Positions 7,425 to 13,008 of a DNA stretch of 64,000 bases are shown here, in pieces (the stretch's first letter is position 1; the number at the start of each line of letters is the position of its first letter). Origin of the DNA: Candidatus Goldiibacteriota bacterium (GTDB lineage Bacteria; Oederibacteriota; PGYV01; DSYL01); the NCBI GenBank assembly GCA_018000835.1, contig JAGNJD010000001.1:137889-201888 (forward strand). The letters run 5' to 3'. The position numbers and the translations under genes are program-made. A model generated the notes under the pieces. The model had not been told where the DNA came from. It worked only from the letters and a program-made list of their open reading frames with translations, and made no database searches.

Positions 7425-7484
7425 CTATCTATAAAATTTTTCATAGTTTATCACAACCAATCCCTTTGTCAATACAATATGGGC

Positions 7485-7592
7485 GTGGAGTTTTCCCGTT
7501 TTTTTGTCTTTGTAGCCGCAGGCTTTATGCCTGCGTAAGCATCTGTTTTTTTTCTGATATTTATTATATTTTTAAAAACGGGAAAACTCCAC
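7485..7592. mobile_element. MITE-like 108-bp element with perfect 19-bp terminal inverted repeats (GTGGAGTTTTCCCGTTTTT / AAAAACGGGAAAACTCCAC).
   Basis: TIR copies lie at 7485-7503 and 7574-7592, with an internal GCAGGC/GCCTGC palindrome between them. This forms the left boundary of the larger TIR-bounded insertion. Confidence 0.5.
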
Positions 7593-7668
7593 TAAATATC
7601 ATATTGACATTTAATTTATATTGCGATTTGATAAAATTTGTCATACAAAGACATACTTGGGGTGACAA

Positions 7669-7857
7669 GTGAAAAACAGGGATAAAAGATTAAGCGTTAG
7701 AACAACAAAGAAAGTAGAAGAGTTGCTTAAAAGTACTTTAAAAAGAAAAGAATACAAATTCTACTCTAAATCCGATATAATCAACCTCGTTTTAGAAGAC
7801 ACCCTTCCAGGATATGCGGAAGGTAAGACAACCGCAGGTAAGAACAATGACAGATAA
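7669..7857 (+). CDS. Ribbon-helix-helix (Arc/MetJ/CopG-like) DNA-binding protein, candidate regulator of the adjacent R-M module.
   Basis: Has a beta-strand-like KRLSVRTTKK followed by two predicted helices (EELLKSTLKRKEY / KSDIINLVLED). Uses a GTG start with a GGGGTG SD-like sequence upstream. 62 aa. Confidence 0.45.
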   Translation: MKNRDKRLSVRTTKKVEELLKSTLKRKEYKFYSKSDIINLVLEDTLPGYAEGKTTAGKNNDR

Positions 7858-7881
7858 ATTTAATATGCTGGTTATTATACT

Positions 7882-9006
7882 ATGAAACCTTTAATTAAAT
7901 GGGCTGGTGGGAAATCAAGCGAAATTATACACGTAGAAGAAATGATACCTGAATTTAAGAAGTATATAGAACCATTTTTTGGTGGTGGTGCTCTATATTT
8001 TGATTTGGAACCTGACAACGCAGTAATTAACGATATCTCTGACGAACTAATTAGTTTTTATAAAATGATTAAGGACAGTTCTTTAAGGGAAGCGTTCAAA
8101 GAAGAATTGTATAAGTATGTTGAGGCGTGGGAAAAAATAGACGTGTATCTGGAAGAGTTTGGAGACGCAATACTTCAACAATATACAAAATACAAGAAAG
8201 ACGACATTGACATTGACGAACTTGAAAAAGCAATAGGTAAATTGTTTAAGAATAAAATCGTTCCTTTCAATGGACTGTTTAAGAAGGATTTTTGCATAGA
8301 CCAGTCCAGTTTACTTGAAAAAATGGAAACTAATTTAATTTCTAAATTGGAACGAACAAAGGAAAAAGTTAATAAGAAGAATAGTTTCTCGGACTCGGAA
8401 ATATCTAAAAATATTGAGTCGGCATTACGTAGTGGTTTATATATGCACTTCCGCAGTATCTTTAATGAAGCCAAAAAGAAAACAATTAGTATCATAAATG
8501 CAAAGAAAATTGCTAATTGGTATTTTATCAGAGAGTTCTGCTATGGCGGTATGTTCAGATTTAATAGTAAAGGCGAATTCAATGTCCCTTATGGTGGTAT
8601 AGCATATAACAAAAAGGATTTACGTTCAAAAGTTGATTATTTGTTCTCTGACGAAATTAAAAACCTTTTATCAAACTCTAAAATATATAGCAAAGATTTT
8701 GAAACGCTTTTTAAGGATATAAATCCTACAAAGAATGATTTTATATTCCTTGACCCACCTTACGACTCTGAATTCAGTGAATATGAAGAAAATGCTTTTA
8801 CAAAATATGACCAAGAACGTTTGGCGAAGTTATTATATACGTGTAAGGCACAGTGGATTCTTGTTATCAAGGAAACTCCATTTATCAAAGGTCTATATAC
8901 TGGACACAAAGGTATAAAAATAAAAAAGTTTAGTAAATCATATCTTTTTAATATCAAAGAAAGAAACGAAAGAAAAGTTCTACACTTGATAATTCATAAT
9001 CTATGA
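7882..9006 (+). CDS. Dam-family (D12 class, alpha-type) N6-adenine DNA methyltransferase.
   Basis: N-terminus KWAGGKSSEI...EPFFGGGALYF matches Dam motif X/I (KWAGGK, F-G-G). DPPY motif IV is present (FLDPPYDSEF). A ~120-aa insertion lies between them, probably the target-recognition domain. Confidence 0.85.
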   Translation: MKPLIKWAGGKSSEIIHVEEMIPEFKKYIEPFFGGGALYFDLEPDNAVINDISDELISFYKMIKDSSLREAFKEELYKYVEAWEKIDVYLEEFGDAILQQYTKYKKDDIDIDELEKAIGKLFKNKIVPFNGLFKKDFCIDQSSLLEKMETNLISKLERTKEKVNKKNSFSDSEISKNIESALRSGLYMHFRSIFNEAKKKTISIINAKKIANWYFIREFCYGGMFRFNSKGEFNVPYGGIAYNKKDLRSKVDYLFSDEIKNLLSNSKIYSKDFETLFKDINPTKNDFIFLDPPYDSEFSEYEENAFTKYDQERLAKLLYTCKAQWILVIKETPFIKGLYTGHKGIKIKKFSKSYLFNIKERNERKVLHLIIHNL

Positions 9007-9009
9007 GTA

Positions 9010-9741
9010 TCAGCGTCCTCTTTGATTTGCAATGATACTTTTTAATTGGTCAATCGTGAGCATAGGGTCTTTTTTATGAATAATACTATGGCAATTTGAA
9101 CATACTGGGACTACTTTTTTAAGTGCTTCATCTACCGATTGCTTCCTTCCAGTGCCATCAACAAGATGGATTGGTTCCGTGTGATGAATGACAATGAAAT
9201 CCTTACCCACGCCATCATATAAATCTTCAAAATTAAAACCACAAGCACAACATGCTATTGGGTTACCGCTTTGTTTTAATTGTCTAATTTTAAGTATGCG
9301 TAATTTCGTTGAACGTGCCCTTTGTTTTCTTGTTGTTTCCGTTACGTTGCCTTCTTCAATAACCAAATTTTTGTAATCGTTATCCATCTCGTCTTCTCTT
9401 TGTTTCGGAGAAAATCCTTGTGAGATTAAAGACATATATGTTCCATTGTTGTTTTGTAAAAACAATTGACCTTTTTTCGTTAACTTATATTTTTTAGTCC
9501 TATAACTATATGTTACAAGTCCGTTAGTAAAAATTCTTCTCCTCCGAAATTTCGTAAAGTTTCCAATACGCTGGTGAAGCATTATCTCGCCTTTGCGTTT
9601 TTTACTTCTTTGAGCAGAAGTGCCAGTAGGATTAAGACGTTGTAGAAGTGTAGTTTTAATAGAACTCATTGGTAGTCCAGAAGGATTTTCAGATAAAACC
9701 TTCATAAAAGGAATTTCCAAATCTTTTTCAAAATAATCCAT
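9010..9741 (-). CDS. HNH-family endonuclease, candidate restriction partner of the Dam-like methyltransferase.
   Basis: C-terminal C-x2-C...HH...C-x2-C-H arrangement (IACCACGF...VIHHTEPIHL...VPVCSNCHSIIHKK). It is convergent with the methyltransferase and only 3 bp away, tail-to-tail. Confidence 0.65.
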   Translation of the reverse strand: MDYFEKDLEIPFMKVLSENPSGLPMSSIKTTLLQRLNPTGTSAQRSKKRKGEIMLHQRIGNFTKFRRRRIFTNGLVTYSYRTKKYKLTKKGQLFLQNNNGTYMSLISQGFSPKQREDEMDNDYKNLVIEEGNVTETTRKQRARSTKLRILKIRQLKQSGNPIACCACGFNFEDLYDGVGKDFIVIHHTEPIHLVDGTGRKQSVDEALKKVVPVCSNCHSIIHKKDPMLTIDQLKSIIANQRGR

Positions 9742-9998
9742 TTTTGCCCTCCTATTAACCCAAGAATTATATTATCATTAAAACACACTTAATAATATAT
9801 ATAATACGGTGGCCCCGTTTGTCAAGACCGATTTTTCCAGAATTTAAGGTGGATACCAAGCTAACGGAAGCAACCTCCTTTCTCATCGGATTTTTGTAAC
9901 TTGACCGCCTGAAATTTCTCTCTAGGATGTCTTCTGTTGCGACTTCTTGAATCAGGTAAGGGGCCAGCACCCCGGACTTTTTCTCTAACTGCGGCATC

Positions 9999-10846
9999 TC
10001 AGGCAGCATTCTTTGCCTGCCTCTTGGCTTTGACTGCTGCGCCAAAATAAACTTCTGCCGGAGTACGATAATCAAGAGCCTGATGCAAGCGGATATTGTT
10101 ATGAATTTTGAAATACTTTTTAAGCCCGGACTCGTATTCAAACATTGTTTCGTACCCCTTTGGATAAACGTCATCATACTTTACACTCCGCCACAGCCTC
10201 TCTACAATGATGTTGTCGTGAGATCTGCCCTTACCATCCATGCTAATCTTTATCTTCTTGCCTTCAAGTATGTCAGTAAACGTTTTGTCCGTGAACTGAG
10301 AGCCCTGATCCGTGTTGAAATATTCCGGCTTGCCGTGTTTGTCAAGCGATTCCAGCAAAGCTGCCTTGCAGAAACTGCTGTCGAGGCTGTAAGACAAAAC
10401 ATACCTGCTGTGCCAGTCCACTATCGCCACAAGATACGCATATCCACGCCTAAGGCGTATGTACGTAATATCTGCTGCCCAAACCACGTTAGAACGCTTT
10501 ATTTTCAACCCTTTTAGCAGATACGGGTACTTCTTGTGCACCTTATTCGGAATACTTAGCCTTTTTTTCGGGCATATTGCCTCTATTCCCATGATTTTCA
10601 TCATACTGCAGGTTTTTTGCGTCCTATTTTTATCCCGTGCAGTTTATACAACGCCTTGGATATCTTTCTGGCTCCGTAGAACGGGCATTCTGTGTATATT
10701 TCGTCTATCCTGTCAAGGATCACTTTATCTAACTCTTTCATCGGCCGTTTTTCATAGTACAGCACCGATTTACATACTCCCAGCAGTTTGCATTGCCTGC
10801 TTATGCTGAAATTCTTGTCGTATGGGTCAACAAACATCCTCCTCAC
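9999..10846 (-). pseudogene. IS3-family transposase OrfB (integrase/rve core), split by a 1-nt frameshift in an A6/T6 run.
   Basis: Two ORFs are in different frames: 10601-10846 (MRRMFVDPYDKNFSISRQCKLLGV...HGIKIGRKKPAV*) and 9999-10604 (MMKIMGIEAICPKKR...DDE core). Inserting one A in the homopolymer (plus strand 10613-10618) restores ...GRKKTCSMMKIMGIEAI... Confidence 0.6.
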
Positions 10847-11130
10847 AACAGGTTCAACTTTTTTAAATTTTTTTTTAACCAGTTTATCTCCAGATCCTTC
10901 TCGCCGATCAGCCTCAGATACTCATCTTCTCGCGATTCCCGTTCTTTTTCTTCCTTGTTGTTCGGTTTCGCAAACAAACTCGCTGCGTTCAGAAGTAAAT
11001 GTTTCTTCCATTCCGTCACTTTATTCGGATGAACTCCGTATTTCGCCGCAACCTCGCTGATTCTTACGCCTTCCCGTGATGCTTCAAGTGCTACCTTTGC
11101 CTTAAAACTCTCCTCATAACGTTTTCACAT
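10843..11130 (-). pseudogene. IS3-family transposase OrfA; the initiator ATG is followed directly by an in-frame TGA.
   Basis: Minus-strand translation after the stop reads KRYEESFKAKVALEASREGVRISEVAAKYGVHPNKVTEWKKHL...LKKNLKKLNLL*, typical of IS3 OrfA. An AGGAGG RBS precedes ATG-TGA at 11130-11125, so codon 2 is a stop. Confidence 0.55.
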
Positions 11131-11191
11131 GATGAACCTCCTGGGTTTCTCTAATTTTACTACAGCAAATCCACCTTAAAAACCGAAAAAA

Positions 11192-11692
11192 TCAGTCCGA
11201 AAAACCTAGGCCATTATACCCATCGACCAGGGCATACTGCTTAAAAATTGAGACCTCAAAAAAACGCTTTGCCTTCTCCACAAACTTCTTAAACACAATA
11301 CTGAACCTCAAACGTATGCCAAGTTCTACGCTATTAACCGCCTTTAATATCTGTTTGTTCTCGCTTTCAGAATCTTCCGCACTTTGTGAATACGCCTTGC
11401 TGTACAACGGCGTCAACTCTTCGCCTTTTACTTCCGCCCCGATGACTTCGCATATCCAGTATCCATTCACAATCTCTTTTCTTGAACCATCATACACCCT
11501 GTCCATATTTTCCATTTTTTTCGCAAAATCTTTCCTTATATCGCTCAAATCTAACGCATGCACCGTATCTTTTTTTATCCTTCGGACTCCTTTTTCAAGC
11601 AACCGCATATTCAGTTTGTCTGTCAGATCTTCTCTTGCTAATTGATGCGTCAGCCGTATTTCCGTCTTTATCAGTTTTATTTTTTCACACAA
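11192..11692 (-). CDS. Hypothetical protein whose 3' end is truncated by the IS3 insertion.
   Basis: The 166-aa ORF terminates at a TGA located inside the IS3 terminal IR (11192-11194). No domain recognised. Confidence 0.3.
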   Translation of the reverse strand: MCEKIKLIKTEIRLTHQLAREDLTDKLNMRLLEKGVRRIKKDTVHALDLSDIRKDFAKKMENMDRVYDGSRKEIVNGYWICEVIGAEVKGEELTPLYSKAYSQSAEDSESENKQILKAVNSVELGIRLRFSIVFKKFVEKAKRFFEVSIFKQYALVDGYNGLGFSD

Positions 11693-11992
11693 ATTCCTGG
11701 ATACTTCTTATATCTTTATATCGCGCGTCGCCTGTATCCCATATATCATCTGCCTAAAAAATTTCTTCCTTGGCATTGTTAATACTTTGCTTATCTCTAT
11801 TATGAATTTTTCAATTCGCTCTTTTATTTCTTCCAAAATTTTGCTATTATTTTCATCGGGATTCCTCCTTTTGGGGAAAACTCTTTTCCCTCTTTTTTTC
11901 GTTAAAAACAGTATACAAAATTGGAATCCCTTTTTTAATCCTTATTTTTGTTTTCTTCTTATTTGATAAGCCTTTTCTGGATTTTGAATTAA

Positions 11993-12011
11993 AAAAACGG
12001 GAAAACTCCAC
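11993..12011. repeat. Solo copy of the 19-bp TIR (AAAAACGGGAAAACTCCAC), the right boundary of the 4.5-kb insertion.
   Basis: Exact match to the TIRs at 7485-7503 and 7574-7592. It is followed by G plus ATATGGGC (12013-12020), identical to the 8 bp at 7477-7484. Confidence 0.6.
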
Positions 12012-12279
12012 GATATGGGCTTACAATCTTTACTTAAAATCATTACCATCTGGTAAACTTACCATTTTATGTATGTCCAATCAATAAATTGCATAAAAGC
12101 ATATAATTTAAAAAGAGATTGTCTAAAATTTATATTTTTTTACCAAACAGTAGCATCTCGTCTTAGAATAGACAAAAATTCCAGTTTAGTATAAAAATAT
12201 TAATTCTTTTATTAAATTTAACAAAAATAATTGAAACCGTGTCCCCGATAATAAAACTCATATTCATTTAATAAAAAAA

Positions 12280-12342
12280 GGCGTAGGGATATAGAGGGGT
12301 TTTTACGAGCAAAGGTAGGCTCAACCCTACGCCAAAGTTATT
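12280..12342 (-). terminator. Possible Rho-independent terminator: 9-bp GC stem GGCGTAGGG/CCCTACGCC with a long loop, followed on the minus strand by T7.
   Basis: Stem halves are at 12280-12288 and 12325-12333; the minus-strand T-run corresponds to plus-strand A-run 12271-12279. The loop is unusually long (36 nt). Confidence 0.3.
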
Positions 12343-12515
12343 AATAGCAAAAAATAATTATTTTGTCAAGAATTTTAAATTTCAACGATGAGGCTTCTGC
12401 TTGATGCACTTCATTTTAAAATCTTTATTCAATAACCTGTCCTTTATAATAATATCAGAGATTTAAATTACATCAAAAATTTATAATTCGCCTATTGCAA
12501 GATAAAAATAAATTT

Positions 12516-12783
12516 TTAATCAGGGAGTGAATAAAACACATCATCTGCACCATTATTTGTAAAATCTTCCAGGTTTGAACCATCTGTGTTTATTAAGTAT
12601 ATCCCCCGGTTGCTGTCACAGTTGTCTGCAGCCGCTATCTTGCCCTTCACCGCCGCCAACAGGCGTATTTGTTATCGCCGGCTTTGCAGGCGTTTCGTCT
12701 TTTTTGCTGCATCCGATAATCATTATTCCCGTAAATACAAAACAAACCGTTAAAATCAATGCTAATCTTTTCATCGTTCCACC
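12516..12783 (-). pseudogene. Small lipoprotein gene with an internal frameshift.
   Basis: The minus strand reads MKRLALILTVCFVFTGIMIIGCSKKDETPAKPAITNTPVGGGEGQDSGCRQL*, with signal peptide and lipobox Cys. Translation continues in another frame as ...DSNRGIYLINTDGSNLEDFTNNGADDVFYSLPD*. Confidence 0.3.
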
Positions 12784-12822
12784 CTTTTATTTTTAATGAT
12801 ACAACAAACAGTTGGACCCCCT

Positions 12823-13008
12823 CGGGCTAAAACCCGAGGCTCCCACAAAAAATTCAATCAATTTGTCCCGTAGAAATTCTCTTTACGGGATTCGTTGATT
12901 GACCAGGGGACGAGGAATACCAGTGATATTCCGCATCGACCTTGGAACCCTCCTGGCAAAGTAGATAAAACATTTTTAATGTATGCATTCATAAAATATC
13001 TGCGTTTA
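12823..13008 (+). repeat. Intergenic repeat family A, copy 1 (~186 bp); candidate small RNA or MITE-like element.
   Basis: About 87% identical to 22251-22439. Contains local hairpins CCTCGGG-CTAAAA-CCCGAGG and CCCGTA...TACGGG, and GGAATA...TATTCC. Confidence 0.5.

Follow-up and report, generated by a model that had tools for sequence, protein, structure and literature searches.

The question raised by this locus is how a block of about 4.5 kb, with inverted repeats at its ends and restriction-modification (R-M) genes between them, came to lie in the intergenic spacer between the CoaX and HD-GYP genes of a Candidatus Goldbacteria chromosome. The block was analysed within a stretch of 64,000 nucleotides from a Candidatus Goldiibacteriota assembly, referred to below as the window. 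The question has two parts: (i) whether the block came in by transposition, and to which family of elements its ends belong; and (ii) whether the R-M genes were part of what came in. We conclude that the block is probably one allele of a single transposon-type insertion with ends of the IS-X family (IS-X being our name for a 1,430-bp IS4-like insertion sequence (IS) from metagenome contigs), with an R-M cassette between the ends and an interior that was remodelled afterwards. That the R-M cassette belonged to the unit that first inserted is a more guarded proposition, whose chance we put at even or a little lower.

The ends of the block and their cognate transposase

The 19-nt repeat GTGGAGTTTTCCCGTTTTT occurs exactly three times in the window, at 7485-7503 (plus strand), 7574-7592 (minus) and 11993-12011 (minus). 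Shuffled windows contained a mean of 0.09 matches with up to three mismatches, and a search of the 64 kb with the 12-nt core of the repeat, one mismatch being allowed, gave no extra copies. With the adjoining bases included, the outermost pair forms a perfect inverted repeat of 22 nt (7484-7505 and 11991-12012). Outside the pair lies the direct repeat ATATGGGC, the presumed target duplication, whose left copy (7477-7484) adjoins the inverted repeat directly and whose right copy (12013-12020) is separated from the repeat terminus by an extra G at 12012. The duplication can thus be read in three ways: as 8 bp with a 1-nt offset; as 9 bp with one mismatch (AATATGGGC / GATATGGGC); or as 7 bp, if the C/G is taken as part of the repeat. 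From base composition, the chance of ATATGGGC recurring is about 1e-5 per position, or about 3e-5 when three offsets are considered. An initial annotation of this DNA had described 19-bp inverted repeats and an 8-bp direct duplication around a block of about 4.5 kb and had interpreted the block as a transposon-like insertion. The boundaries are confirmed, with the 1-nt offset on the right, and the combination of terminal inverted repeats and flanking duplication supports the interpretation.

An abundant intergenic palindrome of the repetitive extragenic palindrome (REP) type, an alternative that the same annotation had recognized, might give a similar picture if the 8-mer matched by chance. 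We consider this barely credible. Beyond the palindromic look of the 108-bp unit at the left end (see below) nothing speaks for it, whereas the repeat is limited to three copies in 64 kb, and a scan of 185,579 GTDB species genomes returned only two isolated, apparently chance matches (in Lentzea and Desulfobulbus). A scan of viral contigs gave no matches. The pattern is also unlike that of REP sequences or bacterial interspersed mosaic elements in that all three window copies sit inside the element and an IS that encodes a transposase has identical ends, and the chance of the 8-mer match is as low as given above.

That IS bears on a further point of the initial annotation, which saw no transposase fitting the repeats and listed a disrupted open reading frame (ORF) among the cargo. 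Judged from its homologues, the disrupted ORF is itself the transposase cognate to the terminal repeats. The minus-strand frame 11856->11218 has 69 homologues, many of them with PF01609 (DDE_Tnp_1), and the closest one (88% identity) belongs to a metagenome-assembled genome (MAG) of Candidatus Goldiibacteriota. Loci L001-L007, from related metagenomes, contain an element of 1,429-1,430 bp, IS-X, whose ends, GTGGAGTTTTCCCGTTTTTTT... and ...AAAAAACGGGAAAACTCCAC, are identical to the window ends. Nucleotides 1-679 of IS-X correspond to window positions 12011->11332 (93.8% identity) and nucleotides 1192-1306 to 11332->11218 (96.5%), the local copy having a 512-bp internal deletion that has taken away two of the three DDE residues, the second Asp and the Glu. 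After nucleotide ~1306 the copy is broken by an IS3 element, and IS-X nucleotides 1307-1410 are absent from the window. What remains of the transposase is the N-terminal third and the C-terminal tail of an IS4-like DDE enzyme, with a frameshift through the loss of 1 nt in an A-run just past the start codon, and with one in-frame stop. The dead IS-X copy as a whole occupies 11214-12011 on the minus strand and includes the remnant ORF, the left inverted repeat (IRL) at 11993-12011 and an internal repeat-like motif at 11873-11890. As it stands, the block could move only with a transposase provided in trans.

Relatives of the transposase with intact ORFs are clearer as to family. One of them, P0150 (379 aa), matches DDE_Tnp_1 (PF01609) with E=3.4e-13, and the intact relatives carry the motifs ALDLSD, VIDRGGDR and YLTRWKCEESFRFLK, a YREK-type signature of the form Y-(2)-R-(3)-E-(6)-K. 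We call IS-X IS4-like and assign it to no named subgroup because the curated NCBIfam models for IS4, IS701 and IS1634 matched only below threshold, the best of them (IS701 and IS4) with 34-45 bits against cut-offs of 115-250. A PDB sequence search with the transposase gave no useful match. The IS-X copies in L001 (2805-4234), L002, L004 and L006, which are 99.6-100% identical, all shift reading frame at nucleotide ~540-560, where the cluster-mate protein P0150 reads straight through; the shift is either an inactivating mutation common to a recently amplified copy or a programmed frameshift.

The left end of the block was identified initially as a miniature inverted-repeat transposable element (MITE), and this holds. 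The MITE is 108 bp long (7485-7592), with IS-X-type repeats at 7485-7503 and 7574-7592 around a non-coding interior of 70 nt, which contains a hairpin, GCAGGC-TTTAT-GCCTGC. Its terminal repeats are identical to those of IS-X and are all that the two have in common, the interior being unrelated. Copies of 108-110 bp with 96-99% identity are found elsewhere, in L010, in L019 and twice in L032/L014. The MITE in the window has no duplication of its own, the flanking 8-mers being ATATGGGC at 7477-7484 and TAAATATC at 7593-7600; the partner of the left 8-mer lies past the far repeat of the block, not beside the MITE.

The pairing of a MITE with an IS-X end is seen again in L019, a 235-bp element at a different site, in which a MITE is fused to IS-X nucleotides ~128->1 through a microhomology, GGGAAAACTC, common to the inner repeat of the MITE and the internal repeat-like motif of IS-X. 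The outer-end pairing and orientation are as in the window element, and L019 shows that deletions between repeat-like sequences happen in the IS-X/MITE family. Separately, two contigs from different samples have 10 nt in common at their element borders, namely L006 (positions 1-15), where the flank of the IS-X IRL ends in GAAAACTGAAC, and L010 (55-80), where the flank of a 7485-type MITE end begins with AAAAACTGAACC. This hints at a second site where IS-X and MITE ends pair, or where the IS and the MITE alternate.

The restriction-modification cassette and the nested IS3

Between the ends lies what we read, from the proteins it encodes, as a type II R-M cassette, intact and horizontally mobile, with R-M activity predicted. 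A leader or promoter-like region of the cargo operon (7593-7668, plus strand) begins exactly where homology to the sister-strain allele described below stops, at 7592/7593. It precedes a gene for a small basic protein of 62 aa (7669-7857, plus strand), a putative controller or regulator, upstream of the methyltransferase. This protein has no family match, and its AlphaFold 2 (AF2) model is all-helical and of low confidence (predicted local distance difference test (pLDDT) score 62). The next gene encodes a predicted Dam-family (D12 class) N6-adenine DNA methyltransferase, which is full length (374 aa; 7882-9006, plus strand), has FGGG and DPPY motifs and matches PF02086 (E=2.7e-36), TIGR00571 (180 bits against a cut-off of 115) and the PADLOC model MTase_II.

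Convergent with the methyltransferase gene is one for a putative restriction endonuclease of 243 aa (9010-9741, minus strand), which combines an N-terminal winged-helix-like domain with a C-terminal HNH motif, CxxC...HH...CxNCH...H, whose Cys, His and Asn residues are invariant in 16 homologues. Direct profile matches are weak (HNH, E=0.12; Mrr_N, E=0.07). In a database of 5.8 billion clusters 22 homologues were found, several of them with PF01844 and named 'predicted HNH restriction endonuclease'. The AF2 model has a pLDDT of 85.7, with only weak winged helix-turn-helix (wHTH) matches in Foldseek, and a PDB sequence search for the nuclease gave nothing useful. The initial description of the cargo as an R-M module with a nested IS3 is supported by these data. 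Gene by gene, the methyltransferase and the IS3 stand as first described and the HNH nuclease stands through motifs and homologues, there being no direct Pfam match; the ribbon-helix-helix label given to one cargo protein could not be verified.

The nuclease and methyltransferase appear to travel as a pair. In both unrelated contexts that could be read (L024-L028 and L029-L031), homologues of the nuclease gene are convergent with a gene for a D12 methyltransferase of ~381 aa. Identities to the window versions are 60-61% for the nucleases and, over the full length, 52-57% for the methyltransferases, and across all cassette contexts 60-67% and 52-59%, respectively. Upstream of the methyltransferase, the three cassettes have genes without homology to one another, encoding the 62-aa protein in the window, an AbrB/MazE-like protein in L024 (6876-7070) and a Zn-ribbon-like ORF in L029 (6873-7322), which suggests that the small upstream gene occupies a variable, exchangeable slot for a controller.

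Several 4-bp palindromes are scarce throughout the window (observed/expected: GATC 33/137, CTAG 4/26, AGCT 26/90, GTAC 33/98, TCGA 35/89), and there are no GATC sites in the R-M cassette and five in the foreign IS3. We considered GATC avoidance as a hint to the specificity of the system and dropped it, because the depletion is window-wide, affects several other palindromes and is not attributable to the cassette.

The nested element is a decayed member of the IS3 family (1,404 bp; 9810-11213, minus strand) with matches to HTH_Tnp_1, HTH_21 and rve/rve_3. Its orfA (HTH) and orfB (rve DDE) are in the -1 register and are both disrupted, orfA by a TGA at codon 2 and orfB by a split near 10601-10604. 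The terminal repeats are 45 nt long and imperfect (TGGCC...GGCCA), and the GC content, 0.44 against 0.33 for the window, marks the element as compositionally foreign. It has no 3-4-bp target duplication, its flanks being ACGG on one side and TTAT on the other. The absence of this duplication and the missing 3′ end of IS-X are best explained together by a deletion beside the IS3.

Two alleles at one insertion site

Related species whose HD-GYP protein is 75-78% identical (L021, L022 and L023) have the gene order FixC-FixX-CoaX-(~430-500 bp)-HD-GYP-TPR, with nothing inserted. Because CoaX and HD-GYP are adjacent in these relatives, the block is an insertion at the gene level. The closest strain has a different allele in place of an empty site. 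Contig L032 (JGI 3300010347, 15.3 kb), which was identified by way of a protein in the same cluster as HD-GYP, is from a sister strain; both of its flanks are 99.2-99.3% identical to the window and its junctions are the same, with ATATGGGC followed directly by GTGGAG on one side, and CTCCAC followed directly by GATATGGGC on the other. Its interior consists of a MITE (MITE#1), genes for a 159-aa protein, a 172-aa protein, a B12-binding radical-SAM protein and a PNPOx-like protein, and a second MITE (MITE#2), the two MITEs being in direct orientation. The left MITEs of the two alleles agree in orientation and in their variant base. Homology between the alleles ends exactly at the inner terminus of the left MITE and, on the other side, within the 19-nt repeat.

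The sister allele is corroborated by L014, which is identical (100%) to L032 3279-6100, and by a third-party annotation (TPA) MAG contig with HD-GYP, PNPOx and radical SAM. L014, one flank of which (X) was at first unexplained, might have been taken for a 'MITE-only' allele or for a chimera of the assembly; both readings are rejected, since L032 shows X to be the first gene of the alternative cargo. This cargo (L032 5271-8414) has a GC content of 0.375 against 0.33 for its flanks, and its 159-aa and 172-aa proteins have no family matches. Relatives at least 90% identical to three of the four proteins occur in several metagenomes, none of them from the MAG that contains the window; the 172-aa sequence is absent from the collection.

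The two alleles might each be the result of an independent event, in which two different composite transposons hit the same hot-spot nucleotide in two strains. Both alleles are bounded by proper inverted ends, and some IS4-family elements have preferred target sequences. Two independent hits at one nucleotide are nevertheless quite unlikely, because the three insertion sites that can be read, ATATGGGC, AATAACAAAAA and AAAACTGAAC, have no consensus; in addition, the junctions match base for base, 1-nt offset included, and the left MITE is the same in orientation and variant base. Most probably, both alleles descend from one insertion, the interior of which was remodelled later.

The transposition step and the order of events that we infer are as follows. 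An IS-X transposase, acting in cis originally or in trans, would have brought the two outermost inverted repeats together in a synapse and carried the DNA between them to the new site by DDE cut-and-paste, in the manner of the composite transposons Tn5 and Tn10, and repair of the staggered target cut would have left the 8-9-bp duplication. After insertion the element would have decayed through the frameshift, the stop codon, the 512-bp deletion and the insertion of the IS3, with loss of the IS-X 3′ end beside it. Recombination or deletion between directly repeated copies of the 19-bp repeat or of the 108-bp MITE would then have remodelled the interior, giving two alleles with identical junctions: MITE-RM-IS3-IS-X′ in the window (IS-X′ being the dead copy) and MITE-PNPOx/radical-SAM/172-aa/159-aa-MITE in the sister strain. 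The block in the window has the hallmarks of a composite transposon, with two IS-derived modules, outward inverted ends, a flanking duplication and a cognate transposase; the duplication, however, also bounds the sister allele.

Several observations weigh against the history just described. One is the 1-nt offset of the duplication and another its length, 8-9 bp against 11 bp at the IS-X copy in L002, the other IS-X copies having no clear duplication; metagenome assemblies across a 1.4-kb repeat are unreliable, which qualifies all such readings. A nucleotide-level empty site with a single ATATGGGC was not obtained, the spacer of the relatives being too diverged. The missing IS3 duplication and the loss of IS-X nucleotides 1307-1410 call for at least one undocumented deletion. 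No second site of the R-M-carrying unit was found, and none of its proteins has a relative at least 90% identical among 15 billion sequences. Finally, the sister allele implies that simple insertion at an empty site does not explain both alleles, and the R-M genes may therefore postdate the original insertion. In searches of the collection metagenome_contigs, a 22-nt left-flank pattern had no matches, which is weak evidence given that the collection seems to lack the L001/L032 sample; the repeat scan of that collection likewise did not return the L001 or L032 contigs. Exact-protein look-ups for HD-GYP, the methyltransferase, CoaX, P0001 and P0070 gave no matches either, in a positional index that lacks the source MAG.

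The window derives from a MAG, and a small chance of mis-assembly through the 108-bp MITE also counts against our interpretation. In its full form, this alternative holds that the contig was mis-joined through the MITE or the repeat, and that the segment with the R-M genes, the IS3 and IS-X′ belongs elsewhere. The MITE and IS-X are multi-copy, IS-X contigs from metagenomes have mixed flank combinations, and the window allele is known from one assembly only. We regard an artefact as very unlikely, because the return path to the right flank would run through only 19-23 bp of common sequence, the GC content of the cassette (0.318) matches that of the host (0.33), the arrangement is coherent and the pairing of ends is repeated in L019.

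Since the sister allele has the same ends and 8-mer with other cargo, the present 4.5-kb unit is not necessarily what transposed originally. A history in which it was, with exactly this unit (MITE, R-M genes, IS3 and IS-X remnant) being transposed in trans and the sister interior being a later replacement, is in our view rather unlikely. The outer inverted repeats and the 8-mer do bound exactly this unit, and IS-X copies able to act in trans are present in the same populations. The same outer-end pairing, of a 7485-type MITE end with the IS-X IRL, occurs at another site, L019, and possibly at a third, as the flanks of L006 and L010 share AAAACTGAAC at the element borders. The sister allele would, however, require at least two more events, or a double crossover with 19-23 bp on one side, and the R-M-carrying unit is known in this one copy only.

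Another set of histories, doubtful even when its versions are taken jointly, has a MITE or a MITE-bounded unit inserting first and making the duplication, with both cargos integrating beside it later, or with the alleles arising as deletions of a larger ancestor. Integration could take the form of circular or other incoming DNA recombining with the resident MITE or repeat, either in Campbell fashion or with help from a transposase as in IS26 translocatable units. Such docking would account for identical junctions and 8-mer around unrelated interiors, for homology that breaks exactly at repeat termini, and for the two MITEs in direct orientation in the sister allele, which are the expected Campbell product. 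The three outward 'right-end' repeats (the MITE inner end, the IS-X IRL and the outer end of MITE#1) would be direct repeats, so that a single deletion could yield each allele from an ancestor of the form MITE-RM-ISX-cargo′-MITE or MITE-cargo′-MITE-RM-ISX, and L019 documents a deletion of this kind. On the other hand, no single-MITE allele, larger ancestor or circular form was observed, L014, first taken as MITE-only, belongs to the L032 allele, and no more than 19-23 bp of homology would be available for a crossover on the IS-X side. These histories predict recognizable junctions. From a larger two-cargo ancestor one would expect the IS-X-specific GAATTAAAAAAACGGGAAAACTCCAC followed by GATAAAAAAATAC, and a single-MITE allele would read ATATGGGC, MITE, GATATGGGC; a true empty site would read CAATACAATATGGGCTTACAATC.

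A more radical version of docking, which we consider improbable, treats the resident MITE or repeat as a fixed docking site at which repeat-linked cargos are exchanged, through a targeted reaction assisted by the transposase, like that of IS26 translocatable units, or through very short-homology recombination. If true, it would mean that an IS4-like family can exchange cassettes without disturbing the original target duplication, and that defence (R-M) and metabolic (radical-SAM/PNPOx) cassettes are alternative alleles. A single insertion followed by remodelling remains the history that we favour.

The surroundings of the insertion have some features of their own. A promoter-like sequence for the HD-GYP gene, TTGACA-16-TGnTAAACT, lies at 7445-7472 (minus strand), with the left ATATGGGC, at the element edge, 5 nt upstream of its -35 sequence; the insertion thus spared the putative core promoter and replaced all sequence upstream of it. 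In the same spacer, on the other side of the block, there is a candidate small RNA (12270-12385, minus strand), with a perfectly conserved promoter-like site, TTGACA-17-TATTAAT, followed downstream by a hairpin of ~55 nt (GGCGUAGGG...CCCUACGCC) and a U-run. The block of the candidate RNA keeps 93% identity in a species in which the identity of the neighbouring protein is down to 75%, with one compensatory change (U-A to C-G) and a minimum free energy z-score of -4.3; Rfam gave no match in the window between 7000 and 13400. Relative to L014/L032, the window also has two strain-specific indels, one a segment of ~515 bp (12477-12991) with a small lipoprotein-like ORF (12616-12774, minus strand; signal ...IIGCSKK), and the other an AT-rich segment of 44 bp (12186-12229).

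Relation to known mobile elements

The closest parallels are the composite transposons Tn5 (IS50) and Tn10 (IS10), in which IS-derived modules likewise bracket passenger genes, with outward inverted ends, a DDE_Tnp_1/YREK-type transposase and a short target duplication. Cut-and-paste by a DDE enzyme is established for the IS4 family, and composite transposons of the Tn5 and Tn10 type move in this way, leaving a flanking duplication of 9 bp. The block described here differs in that one of its modules is a 108-bp MITE and the other a truncated, dead IS, in that its transposase is below the NCBIfam thresholds for IS4 and IS701 and lacks a PDB sequence match, and in that its mobility is predicted from sequence. 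A second parallel concerns geometry. In translocatable units of IS26, a member of the IS6 family, cargo beside one copy of the repeat integrates next to a resident copy through a dedicated conservative, targeted reaction. Integration of this type would leave direct repeats around the cargo and keep the old duplication, which is the geometry of the sister allele; nothing here shows conservative targeted chemistry for an IS4-like enzyme.

MITEs that bracket cargo are known from Acinetobacter, where they flank class 1 integrons and where MITE-297 flanks a 76-kb mer region in a structure 'comparable to a composite transposon' (PMC6382973). The sister allele, MITE-cargo-MITE, has exactly such a design. 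The present case involves another IS family, another host phylum and other cargo, and has two alternative cargos at one site. As for R-M genes, compact type II units bounded by inverted repeats and 8-bp target duplications, with the corresponding site empty in a related genome, have been described in Xanthomonas oryzae and Neisseria gonorrhoeae, and R-M genes flanked by IS elements had been reported earlier (Furuta, Abe & Kobayashi 2010, PMC2853133). IS-linked movement of R-M systems is among the matters reported by Takahashi et al. (2011, PMC3031569). In the compact units, the repeats are unique to the unit and no transposase was identified (PMC2853133), whereas the repeats of the present block can be assigned to a particular IS and MITE family, and an allele with non-R-M cargo exists.

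As read from its genes and ends, then, the block is of a known type, a composite transposon with R-M cargo, and presents no challenge to current concepts. What the case adds is a traced IS/MITE family, a rare pair of nuclease and methyltransferase, and an allelic swap of cargo. In Goldbacteria, a poorly studied candidate phylum, an IS/MITE pair brackets, and has presumably mobilized, a complete type II R-M cassette, which is further evidence for the spread of R-M systems as cargo of transposons. The pair formed by the wHTH-HNH nuclease and the long Dam methyltransferase, with about 20 homologues in 5.8 billion clusters, is a candidate for a new restriction enzyme. Finally, the presence of unrelated cargos between identical ends and duplications in strains that are 99% identical provides a clean natural example of how repeated ends may drive the turnover of cargo after an insertion.

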